This document shows, piece after piece, positions 2,892 to 54,270 of a stretch of 64,000 nucleotides of DNA. The translations under genes were made by a program, and so were the position numbers. The notes beneath the pieces were generated by a model. That model searched no databases, was not told the DNA's origin, and worked only from the letters and a program-made list of their open reading frames with translations. Every line of letters starts with the position of its first letter. Position 1 is the stretch's first letter. This DNA is from a virus (taxonomy: Duplodnaviria > Heunggongvirae > Uroviricota > Caudoviricetes). The DNA is taken from the IMG/VR virus record IMGVR_UViG_2861079508_000001; one strand, given 5' to 3'.

Positions 2892-6610
<3,719 letters not shown>

Positions 6611-6624
6611 AATTGTAAGTTCCC

Positions 6625-7788
6625 TTAATCAAAATTCTTCTGTTTCATTGCCTCAGCCGCTTTTTGCAGCGGTCCTTTTAAGGCTTTTTCTAACTTTGTC
6701 ATCTGCTCTAAGTGCCACGCAACCGCTTGGGGCCAAGTCTCTTTGTTAAACCCGTCAGCTTTGGTCGAAAACTGGATACGGCAAGATTTCTTCTCATCCA
6801 GCCTCATCCACTCAAGTTCTGCACCAAAAGTATGCTCAATGTCTTGTTTGGACTGACTCAACAAATCAAAAAGGTATTTATTCTCTTCGGTAACCCCACG
6901 GCTGATCCAAAGCTCTACTCGAAGCTCTTTTTGCAGAAATATCAGGTTATACGGACATCCACTTAGCCCTGAGCCTGCTGATAACCAATGATCTTTGCTT
7001 GGGCTAATGTTGTTATAGAGTTGGCAAGAGCTTTTCTGAAACGCCTCTAAGGCACGCTCCCAGTACTCGCGACGCACGGTATGGCGGTTTTTTAGTACCA
7101 CTTCGGTGGTTTTTTCTTCCGCTTCCTTGGCATTAATGCCGATCATCAACTCTTTCGCTTCTGGCGTTGGAATGATCTGGTCAATATTAATCAGTAGCTG
7201 TTCACCCAGTGAATAAGGCGTGATTTTGAAGCAGGCAATGCTAATGCCTTGACCCAATAACCACAGCGCGGTGCTGGTCACTTCTTTGCGAAAGTTTGCC
7301 GCAACTAACATAATGCGCTGGCTGTTACCCAGGTTGAGCTTTAACTCATCGAGATCGGGCGCATCCAAAAACTCACATATTCTAGCAGAGGCACTTGCAG
7401 GGGTATTAAACAAGTCAACCTCTCCTGTTACAGGCTCATAGCGGTCTAAGTACTGCTGGTAAATTTCAACGATTTGCGCTTTGGTTAAACTTGCGCAGTA
7501 GGAGGCATATTTAAGCGCCTGCCACACCACATCGCGGCCACTGTCGTCCAGCTTGTTTTCAATAATGACCAAGTTGCCATCTTTATCCAGTGCCAGTAAA
7601 TCTAAGCGTTCACGGGTGTCATCAAAGCCATCGAACTCTTTTTGAATAATCAGCAGCTCTTCACCCAGTGCGGAAGGCTCGTGTGCCAACCATTCCTGAA
7701 GATTTTTGCGCTCAGTAAAGCCCAACTCACTGAATCTCTTCGTCTTAACCGGACTAATCCTGTTGGTCTGATGATTTACCGTGAACAT
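6625..7788 (-). CDS. PD-(D/E)xK nuclease-like protein embedded in the type I R-M operon (DUF4268-like)
   Basis: 387 aa; N-terminal LDLLALDKDGNLVIIENK fits a D...ExK nuclease motif; 9-14 bp gaps to hsdS and hsdR; family assignment from memory. Confidence 0.5.
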   Translation of the reverse strand: MFTVNHQTNRISPVKTKRFSELGFTERKNLQEWLAHEPSALGEELLIIQKEFDGFDDTRERLDLLALDKDGNLVIIENKLDDSGRDVVWQALKYASYCASLTKAQIVEIYQQYLDRYEPVTGEVDLFNTPASASARICEFLDAPDLDELKLNLGNSQRIMLVAANFRKEVTSTALWLLGQGISIACFKITPYSLGEQLLINIDQIIPTPEAKELMIGINAKEAEEKTTEVVLKNRHTVRREYWERALEAFQKSSCQLYNNISPSKDHWLSAGSGLSGCPYNLIFLQKELRVELWISRGVTEENKYLFDLLSQSKQDIEHTFGAELEWMRLDEKKSCRIQFSTKADGFNKETWPQAVAWHLEQMTKLEKALKGPLQKAAEAMKQKNFD

Positions 7789-7797
7789 ATTCGCTTC

Positions 7798-9126
7798 CTA
7801 TTGCTCAACCATTTCTGGGGTGATCTTGATTTTTCCTGTCACGGCGCTGTTGATCAGGGTGGTTTTATATTCTTTAAGCTTTTCGATTTGTATTTTTTGA
7901 TACTCTATAGCTCGCTCAACATCACCATTTAATCTGTTAATGTACGTAATAATTCCATCTCGTTCATTTTTAGAAGGGGGGAAAGGCACAAAAATGCTAT
8001 TAAGATTCCCCACTGTAAGCTGATTAATTGTTGATGTAAGAAATGTCCCTGATAACATTTTGAAAACATCACTATTTAGAATGCAAAATAAATACTCATT
8101 GTGTTTAGATCTGAATACCGTAGTAAAGGCCCCGAAGCTGTTTCCCTCATCAGCGTCAGATACAAATGCACACTTGCCAATTAGGTCTCGACTTCCATTC
8201 CTGGAGCATATCAAAATATCACCTTTTTTAAGCTTTAAGTGCTCAGGAATAAAGCAATTGACATAAACATTTTCCTTTTCACCATACTTAAACTTCCCTT
8301 CGTATAAGTTTGATGATCGCGCAACTAGAGTTCCGCCTTTTTCATCACTTAAATCATTTGGCGAATAAGTTAACCCAATGATCGATTTACCAAGATATTT
8401 TAACCTCTTAACGTCCCAATGCGCTGGAATCTTACCAATCCAATCCACACCGGAGTCTTTCATTGGCACATTGGGATCAAGCCCTTGGGTCACCGCCTGT
8501 TGGATGATGATCTGCTTACGCTCTTTCAGCAGGCTAATTTGCTGCTCTTTGATCGAAATCGCTTCGTCGATTAGAGCGGTTTTCTTGTCGAGGAAGCAGG
8601 CAATTAGAAGTTGTTCCTCGGTTGGTGGCAAAAATACCAAGGCTCGTTTTAATTGAGGCCAATATAGGTTTCTCTGAATTGTTCCTACACCTTTTGAGCT
8701 AACTAAGTAATTAGCCACCATTGCCCCATCTCTGAACAGATAGTTACCAAAGCGGGGAACTATATCTTCCGATAAAGAAAGAACTAAGTAAGCTGGGCTG
8801 ACTATTCCTCGGTAATCAGAAACACCGACTGAACCACGCCAAGCTTGCTGATTATTTAAAACAAAGTCACCTGGATCTACCAACTGATACTTAGTCAGAT
8901 CCGAACTGGTTGTATTTGTACGTTTTGCATCAACGTCATCGAATTTTATTACTCCTTTGTCCAAATAGACTGATAGAAGCTCTTCATTTTCATTATTAGA
9001 AATAGATTTTAATTTTGATTTTGCGCACAAAGGAAATGAATTCCAGTGAACTGGTATGGCCCCTATCCATTCAACACCTGAATCTTTATAAGCCTCATAT
9101 TTCGGCATTTCAGAAATCTTCATCAT
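7798..9126 (-). CDS. hsdS: type I restriction-modification specificity subunit (HsdS), two target-recognition domains
   Basis: 442 aa; duplicated (V/I)(E/D)WIG.IP.HW signatures at N-terminus and mid-protein; between hsdM and hsdR. Confidence 0.85.
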   Translation of the reverse strand: MMKISEMPKYEAYKDSGVEWIGAIPVHWNSFPLCAKSKLKSISNNENEELLSVYLDKGVIKFDDVDAKRTNTTSSDLTKYQLVDPGDFVLNNQQAWRGSVGVSDYRGIVSPAYLVLSLSEDIVPRFGNYLFRDGAMVANYLVSSKGVGTIQRNLYWPQLKRALVFLPPTEEQLLIACFLDKKTALIDEAISIKEQQISLLKERKQIIIQQAVTQGLDPNVPMKDSGVDWIGKIPAHWDVKRLKYLGKSIIGLTYSPNDLSDEKGGTLVARSSNLYEGKFKYGEKENVYVNCFIPEHLKLKKGDILICSRNGSRDLIGKCAFVSDADEGNSFGAFTTVFRSKHNEYLFCILNSDVFKMLSGTFLTSTINQLTVGNLNSIFVPFPPSKNERDGIITYINRLNGDVERAIEYQKIQIEKLKEYKTTLINSAVTGKIKITPEMVEQ

Positions 9127-9132
9127 AACGAC

Positions 9133-11592
9133 TTACCCCTGAACCTTTTTTACTTCCGCACCAAGAATCTGCGCAATCAAACCTTCGGCTTTTTGTTCTA
9201 GGTTGATGATGTCGGTTGCGACCTCTTCTAAACTACGCAGCGGTTTATGACGGTAGAAATACTTATTGAAGCTGATTTCATAGCCAATTTTTACCGTATC
9301 TAGGTTTATCCATGCTTCATCGACATGAGGCTTCACTTCATCTAGGAAGTACTGGTAAATGCTTTGCTTTAATGGAACAGATTCTGTATCTCGCAGGTCT
9401 GAATTGGTCTCGTAAGTGATATACTCGCCTTTTTTACCGCCTTCTGCTGAAGGAACGGGGTAATAACCAAAATCTGGCAAGTCAGCGACTTCACACTCAT
9501 AGCGCTCCAGCAGGTCGTTTAATTTATCACCCGTTAATTTAACTACCTTTTTAACCACTTTCTTGGCGGTTTCGTCATACCAGCTCACCGCGTGAAGAAT
9601 GGCATTTTTCTCAGGTGCTGAAAGCTTAATAGCATGGGCTTTTAGCGATTTATCAACTTGGGTTTTAAAGCTATTGAAGTCATCAAATTCAATGCTACCG
9701 ATGTCAGCCATCAGCGTTTGTGCAGTTTCAAGCAATGCTTTTAGCGCCAGCCAGTGTTTCACATCAAGCAGTTTGGCCTTAGCCTTAGCATTGAGACTGA
9801 TGTCGTTATCTTCACACCAAGAAAGAATGTCTTTCTCGATGGATTTTAAGAAGCTCTTTTTCTGATCTGACCCGTAGCCAGTTTTTTCGTAAACACGTTC
9901 GCCGTGCTCTGCGTACACGTACTCCATCACTTCACTAAGTTGCTTATCAAAACGCAGTGGGGCTATGGCATCTTGAGTAAACTTGGCTTTGCGGCGATCT
10001 GGGCGCTCGATAGTGACTTTGTAGTAGCCAAAATCGTCATTGCTGAATACCTTACTGGCGATGCCAACAGGATCATTGTTTGCATCCAGTGCTCTTTCAA
10101 CATCCTTACACGCGAGGTAAGTATCGGTAATTTCCGTGATGTGCTCAGGCGCAAATTCGCAGTTTTTGTTACCTAAGTTCTTGCGCAACTTACGGTAGAG
10201 CAAGCTGGCATCAATTAATTGCACCTTACCTTTACGCGCCTCAGGTTTATTGTTGTTCAACACCCAAATGTAAGTGGTAATGCCAGTGTTATAGAACAGG
10301 TTATTAGGTAACTGAACGATGGCATCTAGCATGTCGTTTTCAATGATGAAGCGACGAATATTACTTTCGCCACCGCCCGCATCACCGGTAAAGAGCGATG
10401 AGCCGTTATGAACAGAGGCAATCCGGCTGCCTAATGGACTTACGCTCGGATCTTTCATCTTGTTGACCATCTCCATTAAGAAAAGCAGCTGGCCATCACT
10501 CGAACGTGGCGTGGCATCCACCACTTCGAGATTTCCCCAATAGTCTTTCAGGCTAACCTTAAAACGCGGGTCAATCACATCGCTGCCGTCTTTAATGTAC
10601 TTCTGTTCAGACGCCCAACTCTTACCGTATGGCGGGTTAGACAACATAAAGTCAAAGCGAGAAGCCGCAAACTCGTCGGTAGACAAGGTTGAGCCTACCT
10701 TGATGTTCTCAGGGTTGTTACCTTTGATCATCATGTCCGATTTACAAATCGCGTAGGTCTCGTCATTGATCTCTTTGCCGTAAAGGTAAATATCTCGGCT
10801 GTCGTTCGGGTATTTCTCTTCAATGAAGTTTTGAGATTCAGTGAGCATACCACCGCTACCACACGCAGGGTCGTAAACGGTCATGGTCAATGGTAGCTGC
10901 TCTTTCACTGGGTCAAAAACCAAGTGTGTCATCAGCTCAATCACTTCCCTAGGTGTAAAGTGCTCACCGGCTTCTTCGTTATTCTCCTCGTTGAACTTAC
11001 GGATCAACTCTTCGAACACGTACCCCATACCCAGGTTAGTAAGGGCTGGCATCTTGTTGCCATCTGGGTCTTCGATCGTTTCATGAGTTAAGTTGATGTA
11101 AGGGGAAACAAACTTTTCGACGACATCAAGAAGGACTTGCTTTGAGGCCATGTGACGAATTTGCGACTTGAGGTTAAAGCATTCAATGATTTCTTTAACA
11201 TTATCGCTAAAGCCAAGCAGGTACTCTTCAAAGTTGGCGAGTAATATCTGTTGGTTATTCGTTGCGGTGTTGAACAGGGATTTCAGGGTCCATTTAGATG
11301 TATTGTAAAAAACATAACCACTAGCCGCCTTCAATGGTTCATCATCAAGCTCCGTGGCTTGCATCTCTTCTTTTTGGAACTTGACCTCTTCAAGCACGGC
11401 TTCTTTGGTGGGTTCAAGTAACGTATCTAAACGTCGTAATACCACCATAGGTAAAATCACATCGCGGTACTTACCGCGAACGTACACATCACGTAAACAG
11501 TCGTCGGCAATGTTCCATATAAATGAGATGAGCTTGTTATGTACACTATGATCCATTTTCTTTTCCTGTTCAGTGTTGGTTGCACCCCACAA
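9133..11592 (-). CDS. hsdM: type I R-M N6-adenine DNA methyltransferase (HsdM) with long C-terminal extension; start probably MDHSV (about 11556)
   Basis: AdoMet motif DPACGSGGML and catalytic NPPYG; N-terminal IWNIADDCLR HsdM-N signature; about 800 aa versus roughly 520 typical. Confidence 0.85.
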   Translation of the reverse strand: MWGATNTEQEKKMDHSVHNKLISFIWNIADDCLRDVYVRGKYRDVILPMVVLRRLDTLLEPTKEAVLEEVKFQKEEMQATELDDEPLKAASGYVFYNTSKWTLKSLFNTATNNQQILLANFEEYLLGFSDNVKEIIECFNLKSQIRHMASKQVLLDVVEKFVSPYINLTHETIEDPDGNKMPALTNLGMGYVFEELIRKFNEENNEEAGEHFTPREVIELMTHLVFDPVKEQLPLTMTVYDPACGSGGMLTESQNFIEEKYPNDSRDIYLYGKEINDETYAICKSDMMIKGNNPENIKVGSTLSTDEFAASRFDFMLSNPPYGKSWASEQKYIKDGSDVIDPRFKVSLKDYWGNLEVVDATPRSSDGQLLFLMEMVNKMKDPSVSPLGSRIASVHNGSSLFTGDAGGGESNIRRFIIENDMLDAIVQLPNNLFYNTGITTYIWVLNNNKPEARKGKVQLIDASLLYRKLRKNLGNKNCEFAPEHITEITDTYLACKDVERALDANNDPVGIASKVFSNDDFGYYKVTIERPDRRKAKFTQDAIAPLRFDKQLSEVMEYVYAEHGERVYEKTGYGSDQKKSFLKSIEKDILSWCEDNDISLNAKAKAKLLDVKHWLALKALLETAQTLMADIGSIEFDDFNSFKTQVDKSLKAHAIKLSAPEKNAILHAVSWYDETAKKVVKKVVKLTGDKLNDLLERYECEVADLPDFGYYPVPSAEGGKKGEYITYETNSDLRDTESVPLKQSIYQYFLDEVKPHVDEAWINLDTVKIGYEISFNKYFYRHKPLRSLEEVATDIINLEQKAEGLIAQILGAEVKKVQG

Positions 11593-43026: not shown

Positions 43027-43746
43027 TTAGACCATCCCTTTCTGGTGTTTTCTTACCTGCGACCAGGCAATGAATCCTGCCACAACAATAGTGGCAATAC
43101 CGAAGATGATGCGTACTGTATCCCCGCTAGAGATATGACCTTGTGCTTTATCCATAGCAGCGGAAACCTGCGGCATAACATCGGCAAGCTGCGCCAGACC
43201 AATACCTGCTGTGACAGTTGCGCCTGCGGTTTCTTTAGTTACAGGAACAGCCTTCACGGTTTTCACCGGCTTAACGACGCCGGCTCGACGCAGACCTTCC
43301 TCAATAACTTCTGCCGCATACCAGGTGTTCAGCGTTTTTAGTGGACCTCGACCATTCTCGTGGCGAATGATTGCCTCAACCAAAGGTCGAAGGATGTCGT
43401 AATCATGCAGATCGATGATCATGTCTGCGGTTACACCAACGGCTTTAGACACCTCATTAATGTAGGCGTCAGTGTTGTTTTCATTCGGCGGTGCCCAACG
43501 TTCAATAACTTCACGAATGGTATCGATACTTGAGCCGTCTTTTGCGCGACGTTTGTCGTGGTAGGTAATTAGAGTCACCGCCAGCGCACGAATCCCCCAA
43601 ACAGGGTCTTTAAACGTGCAAAAGCGCGGTTCGTCTGGATTCGCAACCAGACCTTGCCACGGTGATCCTTTATCAAGATTACCGGGGTTATTATTACGAA
43701 TGCCTCTCGGAGTCTTCATCCTTGATCTCCTGTTATTGCAGTCCAT
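43027..43746 (-). CDS. putative endolysin / cell-wall hydrolase with C-terminal transmembrane helix
   Basis: position between holin-like and spanin-like genes; N-terminal GIRNNNPGNL motif; C-terminal IIFGIATIVVAGFIAW; family not confidently recognised. Confidence 0.4.
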   Translation of the reverse strand: MDCNNRRSRMKTPRGIRNNNPGNLDKGSPWQGLVANPDEPRFCTFKDPVWGIRALAVTLITYHDKRRAKDGSSIDTIREVIERWAPPNENNTDAYINEVSKAVGVTADMIIDLHDYDILRPLVEAIIRHENGRGPLKTLNTWYAAEVIEEGLRRAGVVKPVKTVKAVPVTKETAGATVTAGIGLAQLADVMPQVSAAMDKAQGHISSGDTVRIIFGIATIVVAGFIAWSQVRKHQKGMV

Positions 43747-44068
43747 TTTTTACGCCATACGCGGCTAACCCCAAAAGCAGTGCAGTAATAATGAACGACG
43801 TTATTTTAGAAACAATGCCGCCAAAGAACCCACTGGAGATGGAATCTAACCGGTTAAGGAGTTTGTCCAGATTGGAGTGTTGAATACTATGTTGCGCCGG
43901 GGTCATATCACCAAAGTAGGTTTTCAGCTGATCATTGACCTCCTGGCCAATTTCTTCACGTAGCTCTTTACCTAATTTGCCAACAACCTCCCGAGCAACG
44001 ATCGCGGCAATACGCTCAACTTGCTCTGTTGTAACGCTCGCCATCTCGTTCGACATGTTTTCCTCCAT
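43733..44068 (-). CDS. holin-like protein with one C-terminal transmembrane helix (start probably ATG at 44057)
   Basis: GGAGGAAAAC then ATG at 44057; C-terminal ITSFIITALLLGLAAYGV. Confidence 0.4.
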   Translation of the reverse strand: MEENMSNEMASVTTEQVERIAAIVAREVVGKLGKELREEIGQEVNDQLKTYFGDMTPAQHSIQHSNLDKLLNRLDSISSGFFGGIVSKITSFIITALLLGLAAYGVKNGLQ

Positions 44069-44118
44069 GAAAAGTCAAATCGGGATGGCGGATTTATATC
44101 ACATTTCACCCTTTTATT

Positions 44119-44140
44119 GTAGGTGTGTACCTACCTATCA
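44119..44140. promoter_or_regulatory. motif B variant upstream of holin-like gene
   Basis: GTAGGTGTGTACCTACCTATCA. Confidence 0.4.
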
Positions 44141-44371
44141 TTCAGCATTGCAACGGACTGATGAGAAAGCACCTACTCCTACCCATCGCCAGTTATAGAT
44201 ACTACCCGCTTTGTATAAGGTATAGTCGTTCACTTTTTTAACAGCATATATGGGTATGACTGTCTCCTGTCCACCAATGATAGCCTCACCGTAACATATA
44301 GGTGTCGGCAATTTCTGGCAGCCAGTAAGAGAGAGAACAACAGCTATTATTAGAAATAATCTTTTCATCAT
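44138..44371 (-). CDS. small lipoprotein (77 aa), possible superinfection-exclusion factor
   Basis: MMKRLFLIIAVVLSLTGC has a lipobox; sits between lysis genes and tail-fiber genes. Confidence 0.5.
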   Translation of the reverse strand: MMKRLFLIIAVVLSLTGCQKLPTPICYGEAIIGGQETVIPIYAVKKVNDYTLYKAGSIYNWRWVGVGAFSSVRCNAE

Positions 44372-44378
44372 TTACTCA

Positions 44379-44987
44379 TCAGTTATACAGATTTCTATTT
44401 ATTACCGGTACTCTGCCATTTACGCTAAAACTATGGCCGCCATTAAGTTGGTTTACGAATATCGAGCTAACAGTATTTCCATATGCCGCATATCCATAAA
44501 CCATTGTCATGGCTCCGCCCGGTACTGGAACAGCGAACACATTCGCATATGTTGGGATTATCGCTGGTGGGTAATCAAAAACATGCCCTCCAGAGCTGTT
44601 CCACTCCGTATTATTAAGAAAGGTAAATGAAAGTGGGATATTTGCCGTATTATAGATTTCCTCCCCTTGTGCATTGAAAAAACTCATGCCCCAAGTTTCT
44701 TTTTTGGCTATACCTTTCGAAAATACGTATATCGTGGCACTAGAGTCGCTACCCTGACCTCCGAAACTGTAAATCACCTGGTTGTTACGCACTATTCTGT
44801 TGGCTATTAATGAAACAGCTTTCGAATAGGCAACAAAAATCATCGGTGAACGATCTGGAGATATTTGGGTGTTAAACTCTGTCCCGCCGGACAAAGAAAC
44901 AACCTGCTTTCTCTGAAAAACGATAGGAGACAAAGAAGGAGACATCCAGACCTTCCCGTCAGATCGATATATCTTGCTTCCGTACAT
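44379..44987 (-). CDS. hypothetical tail-fiber-associated protein (202 aa)
   Basis: ORF directly downstream of the tail fiber locus; Gly/Ser/Asn-rich. Confidence 0.35.
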   Translation of the reverse strand: MYGSKIYRSDGKVWMSPSLSPIVFQRKQVVSLSGGTEFNTQISPDRSPMIFVAYSKAVSLIANRIVRNNQVIYSFGGQGSDSSATIYVFSKGIAKKETWGMSFFNAQGEEIYNTANIPLSFTFLNNTEWNSSGGHVFDYPPAIIPTYANVFAVPVPGGAMTMVYGYAAYGNTVSSIFVNQLNGGHSFSVNGRVPVINRNLYN

Positions 44988-45241
44988 TATTTTTGAAAAA
45001 CCAATATGTTTAAATTACCACTAGCTCCAGACCACGAAATGGTATTTCCAGAAACCGTAAGACTTGTGTATTTTCCATTGGTTACGTCCATTATGTAATA
45101 GTCGATTCCCAATCCCGCCTCAACCTCATATGTTCTACTTCCTGAACCAGAGGGAGTAAAATAATCGAGGTAATAAACAGGGGCCAACGCATCGACCATC
45201 TCCTGTCTTGATGGCGACCAAACCTGTGCACCATAGCTCAT
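44987..45241 (-). CDS. hypothetical tail-fiber-associated protein (84 aa)
   Basis: ORF; 1-bp overlap with the next gene. Confidence 0.35.
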   Translation of the reverse strand: MSYGAQVWSPSRQEMVDALAPVYYLDYFTPSGSGSRTYEVEAGLGIDYYIMDVTNGKYTSLTVSGNTISWSGASGNLNILVFQK

Positions 45242-45266
45242 AAATATATCCTTATACTTTTAAGCA

Positions 45267-45289
45267 GGGGCTGGTTTAGTTCCAGCCCC
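45267..45289. terminator. hairpin GGGGCTGG-tttagtt-CCAGCCCC downstream of tail fiber gene
   Basis: 8-bp GC stem; no clear T-tract. Confidence 0.35.
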
Positions 45290-45301
45290 GATTGAAGTTG
45301 T

Positions 45302-48300
45302 TTATTCTTTAGGTGAATTTAACTTCGTTTCAAGCTCCTCAACCCTTTTGGTCAATTGCTGAATATGATGAATGAGTGGTACAACCAAACGCTCATACAT
45401 CACTCCTTCAGCGACCATACCATTTGAGGAAATATCTTCTGGAGAATCATTATTTGTTGGTTCACGCCAATGGACATATTGCGGGGCAATCTCACCAACC
45501 TCTTCAGCAATAAGGCCGTAATACCCCCAATCCTTTCGGTCACCTCGACAAATTGAACGATACCAAACAGGTCTTAATGACAAAAGTTCATCAGCATATC
45601 GATCTTGTAATGTTTCAATATCCTTTTTATAGCGCCTTGAAGAGGTTGAACGCCAAACTGTATTGATACCTGGGTTTGGATCAATGTACATATTGGCACC
45701 GCTAGTAGTTGTGCCAATATCCCATATAGCAAACCCTCCACTACCGCCTGATTTGACAACCAGTGTTTCAGCAATAATATCCAGGTTGCCACTATAGCCT
45801 GTCAGTGATGATCTGCTTGCATAGGAACTTAGAAGGTTTGTTACCTCTGTTTTCGTGTAAGCATTAAGGTTAGCCGCAGTCAAAGTTATATCGGCAGAGC
45901 CATCAAACGCCACACCAGCAATTTTCCTTGCTGTCTGCAATTTTGTGGCGGTTGCGGCATTACCAGTAGTGTTCTGATTACCAGTTGTATTCACACCAGG
46001 GATTGAATCCTTAGCGGTATATACCTGCGCCCACGCTGACCATGCCGCACCTGTGTTATCTCTTCGTGAGCGAATGAAAACTGGCGCATGTGCACCGCTC
46101 GTACCACTCCAGCCAATAAGCAACTCTCCCTCACCAGCAGCACTCGCACCTTTCATGTGCAATACGTTGCCATACATGGTCGGGTAGCTATTGTTGTACG
46201 CCTCGTACATTTGAATGCCAGCAGTGCCTTGAGTAGAGCCGCTTAACGCCGTAACTCGGCCACGAGATACCAATGTATTAATGTTGATATCGCCTGAGCC
46301 ATCAAACTTAACACCATTGATGTTTCTCGCTGTTTGCAACTTCGTAGCTGTTGAAGCATTACCGTTCAAACTACCATTTACGCCACCAGTCACATTTAGT
46401 CCATTACCAATTGATACAGCACCGCTGGTATTATTAATTGTAATAGGTCGCAAACCGTTCCATGAACCTAATGTGTCTCCTGATGCTGTTAGCATGAAAT
46501 ATGTGTTCGATCCATCATTACGGATAAAGAACCCAAAGCTACCGTAAGCAATGCGGAAACCATTTGCATATTTTGAAATGATCTCGCCAGAAGATGTCAA
46601 ACCTCCAGATAATGTACCACCGGTAAGAGGTAATGCACCGACATCAGAGGCTGTTGGTTTGTTTTTCGTGTTATATACTCTTCGCCATCCCGGAGAATAA
46701 TCTGTGCCATTAAATACATAGATAAACTCCGCATTAGTGAGAGCACCAGAGACACTCGTCGTTGTGGCCGTTGTTATACGGATCGTATAATTGTTTGAGC
46801 TACTACCGTTATTAAATACCTCTATAACAGCTCCTGCCAATGGAATAACGCCACAACCAGTTTCACTATTTGGTATGGTTGCACTATTGGCATAGGCCCA
46901 CGCACATCGAGCAATCCATGACTTTGTGTTAAATGCTCCATTATTTTGCAATAACGTCACTAACTGTGCTGTTGTTATTGCTCCGCCATTACTTCCTGTA
47001 GTTAACCAACCAGTAGGAGATGCCGGGCAACCTATATTTGCTGGCGACAAGGAAATATTTGCCGAGCCGTCAAACGACACCCCATTGATAGTACGCGCAG
47101 TCTGCAACTTCGTAGCAGTAGCCGCGTTGCCCGTTGTATTCTGATTACCAGTCGTATTAACACCTGGCAAATTAATATTCGCAGTACCATCAAAGCTCAC
47201 GCCGCCGATAGTTCTTGCCGTCTGAAGTTTTGTAGCAGTTGCAGCATTACCAGTGGTGTTCTGATTACCCGTAGTATTTACACCTGGAAGGTTGATATTT
47301 GCAGAACCGTCGAAACCAACTCCACCGATAGATCTTGCCGTCTGCAATTTCGTTGCTGTACTTGCATTACCATTTAATGTTCCGGTGATCCCACCAGTAA
47401 CAGACAACGGACCTGAAACTGTTCCTCCGGTTGTTGGCAGTGCTCCAATATCTAACGGCGTCGGTTTCTGATGTGTGCTATACATCGTATAAACAACACC
47501 ATCGGTAACGCTGGAAGGCTTACTAGCTGAATATGTTGGCGATGTATAAATAGAAACTGTCGCATTTGCAGTACAATCCCAATGGATATTTACACGAGTC
47601 GCATAATTGCCAATCTCAACGTAAATATCATATGTATCGCCGGATGTGTTGATCCAGGCGAAATTCGTTAATCCGACAGCTGTACGCTTCCACAAAGCAC
47701 CTGTAATCCCTTTGGGGTTTCCATTGCCTGCTCGTAGAACCAGTTCTGAAATGCCTGCCTGATGTGGGGAGCCGACGTTGTAACCAGCGCCACCAATCAA
47801 TGCGATGTAAACGATGGAACTCGCTTGTGGCATGGTAACCGTAGCCAGTTTGAACCACCCTGCCCCGCCAGAGAAAGACATCGTTACTGAATTTAAAGTA
47901 CCAATATCTTTCGGCGTTAATGTGATATCCGCAGTCAGTGCTTTACCGTTAACTTTTCGGTTAGATGGCACCCTGCTATTCGCATTGTCATTGGCTGCTT
48001 TAACTGCTTTTGGCGTTGCGGCCAGCGATTCACTGGTGCTGTCGACAGCACTGCTAAGTTTCACAACACCTTTAGTTGTAAGGCTTGCGTCTTCCATCGC
48101 AACTGCACCGGCAATCTCTTCAGCACGATCAGCAGCAGCTTCCGCACGGGTCGCAGCGGATTCAGCAGCAGTTTTGCTCTGAGATGCTGCCGTCGCACTG
48201 CCTGCCGCCTCTGTTGCTTTCGTGGATGCCGTCGTGGCGCTGCCCTTCGCTGCTGACGCCTGTCTGGTCGCCTCATCTTTTGAAGCAGACGCAGATGATG

Positions 48301-49459
48301 CCGATGACGCTGCCGAACTGGCGGACGATGCGGCTGCCGTTTTTGAGGATTCTGCACGGGTTTCCGACGCTTTCGCGTTCGTTTCGGATGTCTTCGCTGC
48401 GGAAGCAGACCTCGCTGCTGCGCTGGCCTGTTCAGTGGCTTCGCCAGCCTTCGTTGTGGCTGTTGAAGCAGACGATGCGGCACTTTCTGCCGATTTTCCG
48501 GCGGCTGTGGCACTGGCTGAGGCCTGCCCGGCACTTGTTGACGCGGCACTGGCAGACGACGCAGCCGCTGTTTTTGAGCCTGCTGCAGCCGAGGCGCTCT
48601 GTCCCGCTGCCGTTTCAGAAGACTTGGCGTTCGTCTCGGACGTTTTTGCCGCCTTCGCGGAATTTCCTGCCGCCGTTGCCGAGGAAGCTGCGCTACTGGC
48701 GCTCGAGGATGCGTTCGTTTCTGATGATTTCGCTGCCTCTTTTGAGGCCGCCGCATCCCGGGCTGAGGTGGCAGCTTCTGACGCTTTCGTGGTCGCGGTG
48801 GATGCAGAAGTGGCTGCTGATTGTTGTGACGCTGCGGCATTCGTTTCAGATTTTTTCGCAGCAGTTGCACTCGCACTTGCGGCACTTTGTGAGGATGCCG
48901 CAGCGGATGCACTTTGAGACGCTTGAGAGGCTTTTTCTCCAGCGGTATTGGCGCTTTCTGCTGCTGCGGCAGCACTGGCCGCCGCCTCACGAGCTTTGTC
49001 GCCAGCAGCATCAATCGCGTCAGTGTTATTTTTATACCACTCAACGTTTTCGTTGTGCTCGTTGACGATCTGCATTAGCGGCTTAACGGTTACTTCTGAA
49101 CCGTCTTCACGCTCGATTGTCACCTCATCCAGAGCAGTCAACCAACTGCGCATGGACTTGGAATCAGCCGACATACGCGACATTAGTGCTGTAAAGCGCG
49201 CGCTAAACTGTGTTAAGTCGCCTTCATAGGTCGTAATGATTCGGCACGGAACTTCAGACTGAGTTTCGCCGGTATAAGGTTCTGAGAGAACAATGTTCGT
49301 ATCACTGGTTACGCGCTTGATCTCATACAGCTTATTGTCGGGGCCAATGACGATCATCCCCGGCAACACACCATTAGCTGTTACGTTCCAGGCTGTCCCT
49401 GCCCCAACCAGAGTATTGCTGCCCTGTGTAAATGTGATAGTACCTTCCCTGTACCACAT
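45302..49459 (-). CDS. tail fiber protein with Ala/Ser-rich region, repeated NTTGNQNTTGNAATATKLQTAR modules and C-terminal S74-type self-cleaving chaperone domain
   Basis: 1385 aa; repeats visible in protein and DNA; C-terminal STSSRRYKKDIETL...LSLRPVWYR motif. Confidence 0.8.
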   Translation of the reverse strand: MWYREGTITFTQGSNTLVGAGTAWNVTANGVLPGMIVIGPDNKLYEIKRVTSDTNIVLSEPYTGETQSEVPCRIITTYEGDLTQFSARFTALMSRMSADSKSMRSWLTALDEVTIEREDGSEVTVKPLMQIVNEHNENVEWYKNNTDAIDAAGDKAREAAASAAAAAESANTAGEKASQASQSASAAASSQSAASASATAAKKSETNAAASQQSAATSASTATTKASEAATSARDAAASKEAAKSSETNASSSASSAASSATAAGNSAKAAKTSETNAKSSETAAGQSASAAAGSKTAAASSASAASTSAGQASASATAAGKSAESAASSASTATTKAGEATEQASAAARSASAAKTSETNAKASETRAESSKTAAASSASSAASSASSASASKDEATRQASAAKGSATTASTKATEAAGSATAASQSKTAAESAATRAEAAADRAEEIAGAVAMEDASLTTKGVVKLSSAVDSTSESLAATPKAVKAANDNANSRVPSNRKVNGKALTADITLTPKDIGTLNSVTMSFSGGAGWFKLATVTMPQASSIVYIALIGGAGYNVGSPHQAGISELVLRAGNGNPKGITGALWKRTAVGLTNFAWINTSGDTYDIYVEIGNYATRVNIHWDCTANATVSIYTSPTYSASKPSSVTDGVVYTMYSTHQKPTPLDIGALPTTGGTVSGPLSVTGGITGTLNGNASTATKLQTARSIGGVGFDGSANINLPGVNTTGNQNTTGNAATATKLQTARTIGGVSFDGTANINLPGVNTTGNQNTTGNAATATKLQTARTINGVSFDGSANISLSPANIGCPASPTGWLTTGSNGGAITTAQLVTLLQNNGAFNTKSWIARCAWAYANSATIPNSETGCGVIPLAGAVIEVFNNGSSSNNYTIRITTATTTSVSGALTNAEFIYVFNGTDYSPGWRRVYNTKNKPTASDVGALPLTGGTLSGGLTSSGEIISKYANGFRIAYGSFGFFIRNDGSNTYFMLTASGDTLGSWNGLRPITINNTSGAVSIGNGLNVTGGVNGSLNGNASTATKLQTARNINGVKFDGSGDININTLVSRGRVTALSGSTQGTAGIQMYEAYNNSYPTMYGNVLHMKGASAAGEGELLIGWSGTSGAHAPVFIRSRRDNTGAAWSAWAQVYTAKDSIPGVNTTGNQNTTGNAATATKLQTARKIAGVAFDGSADITLTAANLNAYTKTEVTNLLSSYASRSSLTGYSGNLDIIAETLVVKSGGSGGFAIWDIGTTTSGANMYIDPNPGINTVWRSTSSRRYKKDIETLQDRYADELLSLRPVWYRSICRGDRKDWGYYGLIAEEVGEIAPQYVHWREPTNNDSPEDISSNGMVAEGVMYERLVVPLIHHIQQLTKRVEELETKLNSPKE
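47040..47400. repeat. three tandem ~120-bp repeats inside the tail fiber gene (further diverged copies near 45890-46010 and 46270-46390)
   Basis: repeated ...gtattaacacctgg...gccgatagttcttgccgtctg... blocks seen directly. Confidence 0.6.
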
Positions 49460-49551: not shown

Positions 49552-52500
49552 TTACAGAAGGCCAATTCTTACTCGTAGGACGTTGTTATCGTCATAAACG
49601 TCAATCCGCTGACCATTTATGACCAGTCGCCCATTACCCCCGCTATTACCGTTGATCTCAAGCGTTCCATTTTTGCCGAACCGCCATCCAGATCTACCGC
49701 TAACAAAATTGGTAGATTGCAGATCGCCTACTTTTGCATTGGTGATTGTGCCATCCTTGATATACGCACCATTCATATAGGCGATACTGTTTTCGATAAC
49801 AAATGGCGTGGTGATCTTCCCGTTAACAGAGTTGACCAAACCAAACCTGTCAGCCTGCACCAAAAACTGAGAAAGGCCAGTGGTGTCGATACCAAGCGCA
49901 ATACCAGCAACATACTTCTGCCCTCCGCTCGTTGAAGTTTCCATTTTCAACGTCCACGCGGTTGACACTTTTTTGTTGGTATCAGCAATAGCTGTTGCCT
50001 GCTGTTGAATTGTCGCGGTATTTCCATCCACCTCTGCTTTCAGAGTATCGATTCGCCCACTCAGAGCATTATCTGCCTGCGTTCTCGCTGTCGTTTCAGT
50101 TGTTACCGCCGCGGAAATGTTGGCTGCCGTTTGAGACTCTAAGTTTGTGATTTGAGTCGCCAATGCAGCATCTTGCTCTGTACGCGTTTTCGTTTCGGTT
50201 GCTACAGCCGCTTTAATATCCTCTTTGTATTGAGAGGTCAGCTTGGTGATCTGAGACGACAACGCCGAGTCAGCATCAGTTCGAGCCTGCGTTTCAACTG
50301 CAACGGCCGCACTAATATCTTTCGCTGTCTGTGCTTTTAAACTTGAAACCTCTTTTGTTAAAGCGGTATCACCATCAGCACGAGCCGTTGTTTCTCTGGC
50401 AAGAGATGCCTCGAGATCATTAGCTTTTGCTGTAAGAGACGAAATCTGAGTGGACAATGCACTATCGGCATCAGTCCTTGCCTTTGTCTCTACAGCAACC
50501 GCTGCGGCAATATCAGTTCCGGTTTGTGCTCGCAGGCTGTTAATTTCTCGTGAGAGCGCCTGGTCAGCACTTGCTCTGGCCTCCTGCTCCTGAGTGATGG
50601 CAGCGGATATATCACCGTCAACCTTTGACTGAAGCTGGTTTATTTGTTTGGCTAACGCAGAGTCCCCGCTTGCTCGGGCCTCCTGCTCACTACGTATTGC
50701 AGCAGAAATATCATCATCAACCTTTGCCTGAAGTTGGGTGATCTGGCTTGCCAGAGCCGAATCTTCCGTTGCTCGGGCTTCTTGCTCTTCCTTAATAGCT
50801 GCGACGATATCGTTGCTTACTTTCGACTCAAGCTGAGTGATCTGTGTCGTCAGAGCTTCATCGGCAGATGTGCGAGCCTCCTGCTCTGTACTAATCGCCG
50901 CGCTGATATCTCCTTCAAACTTAGATTGCAGCTGAGTGACACGCTTTGCCAACGCTTCATCGCCATCGGCACGAGCGGTGGACTCTTCCAGAATACTGGC
51001 CTTAATGTCTTCGCCAATTTCTACGCGAATTTCCTCAACCTTCGTGGCCATTGCAGACATATCATCAGCAAAGGTTTTCTGTGTTGTTGCGATCTTCGCG
51101 TTATTGACCATCTGCTTGTGCTGGTCTTCATCTTGACGAAGAGCTAGGTCAATATTTGTTTTGGCTAACGCCTCAATGTTCGTAGTCAGTTCTGCACTGG
51201 CACGATCGACCTCTGCAACCGTCTTTTTCATTTCTTCAACGGCAGCGGAGCTTTCCTCTACCGTTGACTGCAACACTTCCAGTTGTTTAGCGTTTGCAGC
51301 ATCGCCTTCAACACGAGCCTCGCTTTCCTTAGCAATAAGAGCCGCCGCTTCATCTCTTGCAGCCTTTATTGCCTCGACTGTATTAGCGAGAGCTTTATCG
51401 TGTTCAGATACGGTGTTTTCGATTTCAACAATTGCAGCATCAGTAGCATCAATTTTTTCAAACGCTTCATTGACCTTGTCGATCGTTGCCGAAACCTCAC
51501 CTTTAAGCTCGGTTTGTGCGTTCTCCAAAGCATCGCTACGCTCGTTGAATTTTATTTCAAAACCCGCGAGGTTATCGCTGAACTGCTTATCTAATTCAGC
51601 TATATCTTCCTTAACGTCGTTTACCGACCCCTCCAAAGATTCGACGCTCTGGTTGATATGCTCATTTAACTCGTCAACTGCTTCTTGAGAGGCTTTGCTG
51701 TTGATGTCCTCAAGCAGAGCCTGACCAAGCTCGGAAGATGTAATTTTGCCAGCCAGGAACGACAGTACATCGCGAGTTGTCGCCTCTGTACCCAAGTTTG
51801 AGTTCGGAGGGCTTAACATACCTCGCTTGTTCGATGCTCGAACCCAGTAATACCACGTTTCGCTATCCCCAAGACCAGCATGTGTAAAGGTGGTGCTTGC
51901 AGACTCTGCGATCAGTTTCGCCGTATCCAGATTGTTGGTCTGGGATGCGTAAACATTAATGTGATCAAGGTCTACCGAATCTGGATTAACCCAATTCAGT
52001 ATCACATTACGATAGTCTCCAACGGCCGTTAATGACGTTGGTGCATCCGGCGGTGTCATTGTGCCCAGCACCTGATAAACGGTACTGATAATTTCTGTTT
52101 TTTTACCGTTGAATGAAACCGCATACAGTTGGAAGTCGTAGCGTCCATTCTCCGCGACATTAACGATTTCGTATTGTTCTTCGGTTACACGCGCCGATTG
52201 CCAGTTCGATACATTGTTTTCATCAGAACGTCGCCAACTGATCCAATACTCTGGAGATTTCCCTTCCCATGTTGCAGTCAGTTTTACTGACAGGTTGCCC
52301 GGGCTTGAGAGGTAAGTCCCTTCAGTGATTTGCAAATTAGACGGCTTGGAGTAAGTCGGGTCCAATACCGTCGTATTCTGCGGGATAAGCGTTGCACCAT
52401 TGTCGATCGCCTCATATTTAGACGGATTGTTTTCAACAGCGGTGATGTCAAAGCTACCCGACGTTTCCCCCTGAGCGATGTTAACGATGCGAACGCGCAT

Positions 52501-54270
52501 AGGTTCGAGATCTGGTTCTGTAATTGTCCAGACACCGTTCAAAACAGGCGTTTCCGCTGACGACAGAGCTTTTGAAAACGTAACCTTTGTTATGTTTTCG
52601 CCAGTTTCAAGAACATCGCGCTCAACGATTTTGCCTTCCTGATTCAATATCCGAATAAAGCTGCCGCTTTTAGCTAACGACACAGGCGCATCGAGAGTGA
52701 TGCTGTTTTTGGTAAACTCCACAATTCGACCGGAGTTACGTTTACCTGCACGATATTTGTTCTGAATCAGAACGGTTTCACCGGGCATCAGAAATGAGGC
52801 GTCTAAGCCGGCAGTAAATGTAATTACATCCGACTCCATTCTGGCGGTATACAAAAGCCACAAACCAACTCGGTGAGCCTGGCCTCGGCTTGTACATCCA
52901 AATGCTACGACTTCTGTTTTACGCTCACCATAACGGCGCATTGCGTCCTGATCTTCAACGTACTCGATGTTTTGCTTATAACCGTCCTCCTTGTTGTTGT
53001 AGGTTACGAGCGCAACGGATGGGCGATCTTTACGCGCAGAACCTTTATAGGTAAACAGTCCATCTTTGACGTTGGAGTTGGTAAACATCATTACTGGATC
53101 TGATGGGCTATCCTGCATGATGTTAACCATGCCACCAGCCCAAAACACCATGCCGCGGAATGCACCGGCAATATCCTGAATTAATCGGTATGCGTCTTGT
53201 CGACTGGTGATCTGCGTATTGATTGCAAAGCGTTTCTCTTTACCCCCAAAGCCATCATCGACCTCTTCGTCACAATATCGACCAATCTGGTAGAGCTGGC
53301 CGAGGTCAATCATGGATTCCGACACAAATTGCCCAAGACCATACCGAGTATTGGTAAGCAAATCGTAGAGAATCCACGCAGGGTTTGAAGAAGACAACAG
53401 CTTAAAAGTACCGTCCCATACGCCGACATAAGTATTGGTGTATTCGTTGTCTCGGATTTTGATACCGCGCACCAAATACGAACGGGAAGGCATTGTGCTA
53501 CCAAACTGCTCTGAATTGACCTTCAAGCCAACAAGAGCAGAGTTAGGGTAGTTCATTGGCGTGTCGACAATCTCACCTATGGAATCAACCCATGTGTCGT
53601 TGTAGAGGTACTGGCTACTGTTATCATCTGTAAGACGAATCACCCTAACCTTGTATGCACGACCAGGCTTAGGTAGTTTCAGCTCATAGCTACGGTAATA
53701 CACGCCGGTTTTCTTTGCCGTTAGCGTGATATCAACGCTTTTCTCACCTTCTGCCACTACATCAGAAAATGTTGCGTCTCCGTTGGCGATCTGGAATTTG
53801 TACTTCACCGTAGTGCCATTTGTATCGCCAGAGCTTTTATCAACGCTACGTAAAGAGGGGAATTTCATGATGACACGAACGCGATCAGCTTCATCGTTAT
53901 CGATTGAAACCGTAACGTCGTGTGTTTTTTTAAGCTGAATATTTACGGACTTAGGCGTTTCGACAAAATCAAAACCAGCCATTGGCGTCTGGTCTTGTGA
54001 GCCGTCACGAAAATCCCATGTAATACCGCTGAAGTTGGAAGAGCCATCTTCATTCAAGATCGGTAAATCGTCGATGAAGATCGACTTTGCGCCATTTACC
54101 AGGCCACCGATAACCCCCTCGCCAAGAAGGTCGAGGATGGCTGCCATAGCACGAGAATTGACAGTATCATCAGCTTCAACCGGGGTACGGCTGGAGCTTT
54201 TACTTTTCTTGCCACCAGCACCGGCAATAAGAAGCGGTAATTTTTTCTTCTTGAACTGTTCCATGTCCAA
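49552..54270 (-). CDS. lambda J-like tail tip / host-specificity protein with long coiled-coil repeat insertion
   Basis: 1572 aa; ILDLLGEGVIGGLVNGAKSIFIDD, YPNSALVGLKVNSEQFGS and VVAFGCTSRGQAHRVGLWLL match lambda J; ~330 aa of ~28-aa helical repeats. Confidence 0.85.
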   Translation of the reverse strand: MDMEQFKKKKLPLLIAGAGGKKSKSSSRTPVEADDTVNSRAMAAILDLLGEGVIGGLVNGAKSIFIDDLPILNEDGSSNFSGITWDFRDGSQDQTPMAGFDFVETPKSVNIQLKKTHDVTVSIDNDEADRVRVIMKFPSLRSVDKSSGDTNGTTVKYKFQIANGDATFSDVVAEGEKSVDITLTAKKTGVYYRSYELKLPKPGRAYKVRVIRLTDDNSSQYLYNDTWVDSIGEIVDTPMNYPNSALVGLKVNSEQFGSTMPSRSYLVRGIKIRDNEYTNTYVGVWDGTFKLLSSSNPAWILYDLLTNTRYGLGQFVSESMIDLGQLYQIGRYCDEEVDDGFGGKEKRFAINTQITSRQDAYRLIQDIAGAFRGMVFWAGGMVNIMQDSPSDPVMMFTNSNVKDGLFTYKGSARKDRPSVALVTYNNKEDGYKQNIEYVEDQDAMRRYGERKTEVVAFGCTSRGQAHRVGLWLLYTARMESDVITFTAGLDASFLMPGETVLIQNKYRAGKRNSGRIVEFTKNSITLDAPVSLAKSGSFIRILNQEGKIVERDVLETGENITKVTFSKALSSAETPVLNGVWTITEPDLEPMRVRIVNIAQGETSGSFDITAVENNPSKYEAIDNGATLIPQNTTVLDPTYSKPSNLQITEGTYLSSPGNLSVKLTATWEGKSPEYWISWRRSDENNVSNWQSARVTEEQYEIVNVAENGRYDFQLYAVSFNGKKTEIISTVYQVLGTMTPPDAPTSLTAVGDYRNVILNWVNPDSVDLDHINVYASQTNNLDTAKLIAESASTTFTHAGLGDSETWYYWVRASNKRGMLSPPNSNLGTEATTRDVLSFLAGKITSSELGQALLEDINSKASQEAVDELNEHINQSVESLEGSVNDVKEDIAELDKQFSDNLAGFEIKFNERSDALENAQTELKGEVSATIDKVNEAFEKIDATDAAIVEIENTVSEHDKALANTVEAIKAARDEAAALIAKESEARVEGDAANAKQLEVLQSTVEESSAAVEEMKKTVAEVDRASAELTTNIEALAKTNIDLALRQDEDQHKQMVNNAKIATTQKTFADDMSAMATKVEEIRVEIGEDIKASILEESTARADGDEALAKRVTQLQSKFEGDISAAISTEQEARTSADEALTTQITQLESKVSNDIVAAIKEEQEARATEDSALASQITQLQAKVDDDISAAIRSEQEARASGDSALAKQINQLQSKVDGDISAAITQEQEARASADQALSREINSLRAQTGTDIAAAVAVETKARTDADSALSTQISSLTAKANDLEASLARETTARADGDTALTKEVSSLKAQTAKDISAAVAVETQARTDADSALSSQITKLTSQYKEDIKAAVATETKTRTEQDAALATQITNLESQTAANISAAVTTETTARTQADNALSGRIDTLKAEVDGNTATIQQQATAIADTNKKVSTAWTLKMETSTSGGQKYVAGIALGIDTTGLSQFLVQADRFGLVNSVNGKITTPFVIENSIAYMNGAYIKDGTITNAKVGDLQSTNFVSGRSGWRFGKNGTLEINGNSGGNGRLVINGQRIDVYDDNNVLRVRIGLL

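Follow-up and report, generated by a model that had tools for sequence, protein, structure and literature searches.

A candidate host-recognition module of two putative receptor-binding proteins and the lipoprotein Cor in an SSU5-like phage-plasmid

In small siphoviruses, the loci downstream of gpJ were proposed in the BASEL study to determine receptor specificity and to carry exclusion proteins as well (PMC8594841). A modelling paper of 2025 proposed proteins termed 'Ig-like' and 'hand-like' as receptor-binding proteins (RBPs) for FhuA (JLBYU60) or BamA (tv24B) (PMC12309495). In N15, such a pair together with cor represents genes 22-24 directly after J; the T1 pair likewise lies after J and next to cor, and in Stx phages a homologous pair follows the tail spike. 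The receptor-binding role of the N15 gp22/gp23 family is a putative one, derived from genomics and structure prediction only, and in the cryo-EM analysis of the T1 tail tip the distal tip is unresolved (PMC11945409). The third component, Cor, is known from E. coli prophages to inactivate FhuA functionally by a mechanism noted as unsolved (bioRxiv 10.64898/2026.03.26.714494). Cor is about 20% identical to Llp of phage T5 and predicted to fold similarly, and both are assigned to a single structural family that acts on FhuA (PMC9586334; bioRxiv 10.64898/2026.03.26.714494).

Here we analysed a locus in a 64-kb stretch of viral DNA, which will be referred to as the window. Positions 44100-45300 were 100% identical to the E. 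coli plasmid pSJC33-2 (NZ_CP080257, 113 kb, non-mobilizable), and 72 plasmid records matched this region at 95-100% identity. As its flanks matched phage SSU5 and the E. coli phage-plasmids Cyrano, PhiR41_1 and CMS-2020a, the window is part of an SSU5-like siphovirus maintained as a plasmid. At some distance from the locus, positions 3593-11592 carry four large minus-strand ORFs (1005, 387, 442 and 819 aa), which resemble the type I restriction-modification genes of pSJC33-2 (hsdR, DUF4268, hsdS, hsdM). In this comparison by length and order the first two ORFs were equal in length and the last two agreed within a few codons; on this basis, the four ORFs probably encode a defence system of the phage-plasmid.

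The first-pass annotation had placed three small ORFs between the lysis cassette and the tail fibre gene, and their limits (44138-45241, all on the minus strand) proved to be exact. In the direction of transcription, a gene for a lateral tail fibre of 1385 aa (45302-49459, minus strand) is followed by the genes for an 84-aa protein (44987-45241), a 202-aa protein (44379-44987) and a 77-aa lipoprotein (44138-44371), and further downstream by holin, endolysin and Rz/Rz1 spanin genes identified by PHROG matches. The central tail-tip protein J (1572 aa; 49552-54270, minus strand; Pfam FNIII-A_GpJ, Phage-tail_3 and Phage_Tail_Tip) is encoded upstream of the fibre gene. Each of the three small ORFs matched a PHROG family (E values from 1e-24 to 5e-49), and the same set of three genes was found in SSU5, N15 and T1. 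Comparison with SSU5 yielded pN values of 0.17-0.26 and pS values of 0.74-0.85, at which synonymous sites are saturated; judged by these substitutions, all three genes are under strong purifying selection. Based on these three observations, they are real genes rather than chance ORFs. The encoded proteins share 57-75% amino acid identity with their SSU5 counterparts, whereas the adjacent holin and endolysin (43027-44068) share 94-95%, and such a steep divergence is expected for a specificity locus. The 64-kb window contained no paralogues of these proteins, and a scan for promoters and terminators returned fewer sites than expected from shuffled sequence. Regarding the neighbouring holin ORF, which is listed as 111 aa, we observed a GGAGG 7 nt before its fifth codon (Met; 44056-44068); the resulting 107-aa start is the one used by PGAP and for SSU5.

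The 77-aa protein had been likened to Cor of phi80 and Llp of T5, and it turned out to be a true Cor homologue. It matched the NCBIfam equivalog NF047972 'phage exclusion lipoprotein Cor' with 81.2 bits at a cut-off of 31, the match covering residues 2-75 of the protein and positions 1-77 of the 78 in the profile, and also PHROG 1119 (E 9.2e-31). Using tblastn, 220 phage records were matched. Identity was 61% to Cor of SSU5, 57% to that of Stx phages, 47% to that of HK022 and the mEp phages, 42% to N15 gene 24 and 30% to T1 Cor. In pSJC33-2, the plasmid identical to this region, RefSeq lists the gene as cor, and the SSU5 counterpart appears as Cor-like in GenBank; the protein is thus, by its sequence, a previously annotated member of the Cor family. 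The nearest Cor proteins outside the SSU5 group, those at 57%, are encoded by Stx-converting Traversvirus phages, for example phi315 (L006 5431-6216), in which cor directly follows a 'tail fiber adhesin' gene and lies 3.5 kb upstream of the Ig-like/hand-like pair.

In the N-terminus of the protein, MMKRLFLIIAVVLSLTGC, a basic n-region and a hydrophobic core precede the lipobox LTGC, which occupies residues 15-18; the Pfam model LPAM_1 remained below threshold (16.8 bits versus 20). Signal peptide cleavage is predicted at MMKRLFLIIAVVLSLTG|C, which would yield a mature form of 60 aa. Since the residue at +2 is Gln and not Asp, the standard sorting rule predicts that this form is anchored in the inner leaflet of the outer membrane. 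In an alignment of five sequences including Cor of SSU5, N15, T1 and phi315, the lipobox cysteine C18 as well as C26 and C74 were invariant, and we infer an intramolecular disulfide C26-C74 in mature Cor. A place of Cor in the lysis cassette, for instance as o-spanin, was ruled out, as both Rz and Rz1 are present and its membership in the Cor family is clear. A promoter scan detected none that would express Cor in the lysogen, and the stretch separating cor from the holin gene was devoid of significant RNA structure (z -0.5).

The 202-aa protein, a member of the hand-like N15 gp23 family, matched PHROG 425 (E 4.5e-49). Its start codon and the preceding stop codon, that of the 84-aa gene, share one base (TAATG), and residues M1, Y2, G3, I6, G11, P17 and P21 are invariant in the homologues of SSU5, N15, T1 and Stx phages. 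In pSJC33-2, PGAP predicted a 188-aa version which starts at Met15 and is preceded by a GGAAGG Shine-Dalgarno sequence (44946-44987). The longer version is preferred because the first 14 codons are conserved in distant homologues and because of the stop overlap, so the PGAP call is, from the sequence, probably too short. The first, word-indexed searches retrieved relatives of the SSU5 group only, and the distant homologues were obtained with a profile. Identity to any homologue outside the SSU5 group is 19-32%, the nearest being full-length proteins of T1-like Drexlerviridae (29-32%). Neither for this protein nor for the 84-aa protein did Pfam yield a significant match or NCBIfam any match, a Pfam hit to CAS_C (E 0.031) being rejected as noise. 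Sequence searches of the PDB, by phmmer for each protein and with a 93-sequence profile, returned no phage RBP and no meaningful match.

Structure prediction, which the first-pass annotation had suggested as a check, was carried out for both proteins. The AF2 model of the 202-aa protein, calculated from a 93-sequence alignment and of moderate confidence (pLDDT 73, pTM 0.73), is all-beta and matches the solved fold of the Oekolampad RBP, with 137 of 202 residues aligned at 14% identity. The 202-aa protein is probably the terminal RBP. The 84-aa protein was modelled, again with moderate confidence, as a small beta sandwich (pLDDT 77) that is all-beta over residues 22-84 behind a disordered stretch of residues 1-19, and a structure search with this model gave no significant match. 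It belongs to the Ig-like N15 gp22 family, matched PHROG 557 (E 1.3e-24) and aligns with SSU5_023, N15 gp22 and the homologues of T1 and Stx phages. Its probable role is that of an adaptor or co-RBP located at the J tip. Both proteins begin with a motif, (Y/W)G-x-x-[IVF]-[WYF]-x-x-x-G, of which the larger one contains a further copy (residues 2-25 of the 84-aa protein, residues 1-24 and 98-122 of the 202-aa protein; hhalign E 1.3e-4, probability 54%); it could represent a repeated hairpin or a common docking element.

The 84-aa gene is preceded by an AAGGA Shine-Dalgarno sequence at a distance of 7 nt. The 60-nt spacer between the fibre stop codon and its start contains a GC-rich 8-bp hairpin (45267-45289, minus strand), and a weaker hairpin behind it includes both the start codon of this gene and its ribosome-binding site. 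The fold of 45236-45310 (minus strand) has a free energy of -24.5 kcal/mol, with z -5.2 compared to shuffles. Lacking a subsequent U-run, the GC-rich hairpin does not qualify as a classical terminator, and it was also passed over by the terminator scan; possibly it acts as a transcript-processing or attenuation signal.

The two candidate RBP genes and cor resemble a known host-recognition module, and the module itself is ordinary. In all 78 IMG/VR loci recovered by profile, the hand-like gene is directly preceded by the Ig-like gene. In 23 of the 24 loci with the cassette type present in the window (type A), cor follows directly downstream of the pair, the 24th locus being cut by the contig end. 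We therefore consider the trio to be one host-recognition module of a temperate SSU5-like siphovirus kept as a plasmid, with a probability of about 0.72. In detail, the 84- and 202-aa proteins would be produced along with the late tail genes, incorporated into the virion and assembled on the C-terminal tip of J. There, the 202-aa protein would engage an outer-membrane beta-barrel protein as terminal RBP and the 84-aa beta-sandwich protein would serve as adaptor or co-RBP. By analogy to the action of T5 Llp on FhuA and of Rtp45 on LptD, Cor would bind the periplasmic side of the same receptor and make it unusable for the RBP. An exclusion phenotype of this kind would shield lysogens and infected cells from superinfection and keep progeny from adsorbing to debris.

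Concerning the receptor, FhuA is the most likely candidate at roughly even odds, because every Cor tested so far acts on FhuA (bioRxiv 10.64898/2026.03.26.714494; PMC9586334) and because, outside the SSU5 group, the 202-aa protein has its nearest relatives in T1-like phages. A serious alternative, to which we give somewhat less than an even chance, is that the module works as described but is directed at another TonB-dependent transporter, BamA, LptD or another outer-membrane protein, which this variant of Cor would block. Identities as low as 19-32% between the 202-aa protein and its homologues outside the SSU5 group would fit this reading; moreover, its family includes members from Stx phages that are reported to depend on BamA (PMC12309495), and it is in Stx phages that the closest Cor outside SSU5 resides. 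In addition, the best structural match of the 202-aa protein binds LptD. However, LptD-type loci use another exclusion lipoprotein, Rtp45 (PMC12685063), the Cor described here is 42-47% identical to those of N15 and HK022, and the T1-like relatives of the 202-aa protein match over their full length. SSU5 was reported, as cited in PMC12312913, to be specific for the LPS core through its fibre gp22, which is compatible with, and does not exclude, a protein as terminal receptor. The supplements of the receptor-prediction preprint make no mention of SSU5 or Cyrano.

The two neighbours of the lipoprotein had been taken for receptor-binding or fibre-accessory proteins. The former role is supported by homology to N15 and T1, by the literature and by the Oekolampad fold, whereas the adjacent fibre is a less likely partner than J. 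J ends 18 residues after its Phage_Tail_Tip domain (PF09327, residues 1420-1554 of 1572), and by Pfam and C-terminal comparison it has no lambda-type C-terminal receptor-binding domain. Its C-terminus ...VYDDNNVLRVRIGLL resembles those of N15 gp21, T1 J and the spike of Stx phages, with which it has the terminal motif ...VLRVRIGLL in common. Nevertheless, the pair does not directly follow J in the window, nor does it in SSU5, as the 4.2-kb fibre gene intervenes. The two proteins lie directly downstream of this gene, which is the usual place for chaperones or adhesins of fibres, and the segment that differs from Cyrano holds the C-terminal tip of the fibre together with the cassette. Both observations would fit assembly chaperones or distal adhesins of the lateral fibre (Tfa or gp38-like) instead of partners of J, a reading we consider unlikely. 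The fibre (Pfam Gp34_trimer, E 5.9e-29) has its own intramolecular chaperone domain (Peptidase_S74), which argues against this reading. Furthermore, the same pair follows J in N15 and T1 without a lateral fibre in between, SSU5 carries a separate 'tail fiber adhesin' gene between fibre and pair, and in Cyrano-type phage-plasmids the homologous pair is located ~55 kb from any fibre gene. Pfam and NCBIfam gave no chaperone or adhesin match for either protein and thus no support for assigning them to fibre assembly or to the gp38 type. Most likely, the partner of the pair is therefore J and not the adjacent lateral fibre. Within the fibre gene, the Ala/Ser-rich repetitive part (48061-49065) gives rise to spurious ORFs of 327, 326 and 231 aa in other frames or on the opposite strand, which are not to be counted as genes.

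That the two proteins are membrane or outer-membrane proteins of lysogenic conversion, as the names of PHROG 557 ('outer membrane protein') and PHROG 425 ('membrane associated protein') and the product names copied into the SSU5, N15 and Stx-phage records would have it, is highly improbable, as signal peptide, lipobox and any membrane or hydrophobic segment are absent from both (maximum 19-residue Kyte-Doolittle mean 0.54 and 1.24), their AF2 models are soluble and all-beta, the fold of the 202-aa protein matches a phage RBP and a low membrane affinity was estimated for homologues (PMC12309495).

Coming back to the trio as a host-recognition module, SSU5-like phage-plasmids were found to carry two types of cassette. 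The trio is absent from Cyrano, PhiR41_1 and both CMS-2020a records, and in the annotated record of Cyrano the holin gene directly follows the fibre gene. The segment differing from Cyrano corresponds to positions 44140-45819 of the window and comprises the last ~172 codons of the fibre and the three genes. Cyrano-type phages possess instead a second pair (type B), whose proteins are 34-35% and 26% identical to those of the window. It is located at a distance of ~55 kb, flanked by a 189-aa gene and a DUF4942 gene, in surroundings of early or accessory genes and without Cor (CMS-2020a, L007 5717-6615; Cyrano, L011 5934-6832, CYRAN_88/89). At the DNA level, the type B pair is 76% identical to the JenP1/JenP2 pair and 65% to the Stx-phage pair. 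In pSJC33-2 the type B site is empty and the whole plasmid carries one pair (type A) plus Cor; Cyrano carries one pair (type B) and no Cor. The C-termini of J in the window and in Cyrano are 99.6% identical. Mutual exclusivity was checked on four complete genomes: on pSJC33-2 and Cyrano by local tblastn, whereas SSU5 and CMS-2020a were judged by a single matching place each. Among 5426 complete E. coli genomes, 67 carried type A and 150 type B (217 in sum), almost always on plasmids.

A single pair per genome together with an unchanged J tip agrees with the expectation for an RBP module that is essential and can be exchanged. We tentatively suggest, with the odds rather against it, that the phage-plasmids switch their terminal receptor by exchanging two non-allelic cassettes on the same J tip, and that the hand-like family and the LptD-binding RBPs, which have been described as unrelated, form one superfamily of monomeric binders of outer-membrane beta-barrels. 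The type A cassette would presumably be directed at FhuA or another TonB-dependent transporter.

Taken together, the reading of the first-pass annotation was essentially right, and the locus is an instance of a known module in which cor was already annotated. Current understanding is unchanged by it, as a known scheme is extended to another phage group. What is added are modest leads, namely the fold link to a solved RBP, the displacement of the module from J and the two non-allelic cassettes. The link to an LptD-binding RBP fold would represent, at the level of a structural model, the first structural support for N15 gp23-type 'hand-like' proteins as RBPs. SSU5-like phage-plasmids are common in E. 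coli, both cassette types together amounting to ~4% of complete genomes, and can carry resistance genes (PMC9600943). Knowing their host-range genes and the gene that closes the receptor helps to predict which strains they enter. If the receptor is FhuA, Cor would affect ferrichrome uptake and the sensitivity of carriers to albomycin, colicin M and T1/T5-type phages.

Compared with the described systems, the locus is closest to those of N15 and T1. N15 gp22/gp23 and the T1 pair belong to the same two families, in the same order and with the same overlap of start and stop codons, and J of N15 and T1 likewise lacks a C-terminal receptor-binding domain. In N15 and T1, however, the pair sits by J, whereas here the lateral fibre gene is inserted between them. 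With 84 and 202 aa the proteins are also shorter than the homologues of N15, T1 and Stx phages (about 100 and 225 aa), to which they are 19-28% identical. The Cor proteins of phi80, N15 (gp24), HK022, mEp167 and T1 fall into the same curated HMM family and have the same size of 77 aa. They share with the protein described here the lipobox and two conserved cysteines in the mature part, and their genes are likewise located at the end of the receptor-binding locus. Cor of the window forms a subgroup with SSU5 and Stx-phage Cor, those of N15 and HK022 being further off and T1 Cor, at 30%, most distant. The spacing differs as well: cor starts 7 nt after the 202-aa gene, compared to a gap of 112 nt in N15, and in T1 it is found on the opposite strand.

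T5 Llp, a small outer-membrane lipoprotein with one disulfide whose gene lies beside the RBP gene, blocks FhuA from the periplasmic side (PDB 8A60; PMC9586334), and by analogy we propose that Cor acts in the same way. A comparison of the Cor profile with Llp (8a60_B) yielded a non-significant E value of 0.16 with an alignment limited to the signal peptide and the first cysteine, and the T5 RBP pb5 is unrelated to the 202-aa protein. Oekolampad (Bas18) differs in that its exclusion lipoprotein, Rtp45, belongs to a different family and that LptD is demonstrated as its receptor, whereas the receptor of the 202-aa protein is only predicted. Its RBP escaped the profile search of the PDB (0 matches), and the structural alignment showed an identity of 14%. 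Nevertheless, the fold of this RBP, as solved on LptDE (PDB 9RPT), is shared by the model of the 202-aa protein, and the Oekolampad locus, in which the RBP gene lies beside that of a small periplasmic exclusion lipoprotein (PMC12685063), follows the same logic as the locus described here.
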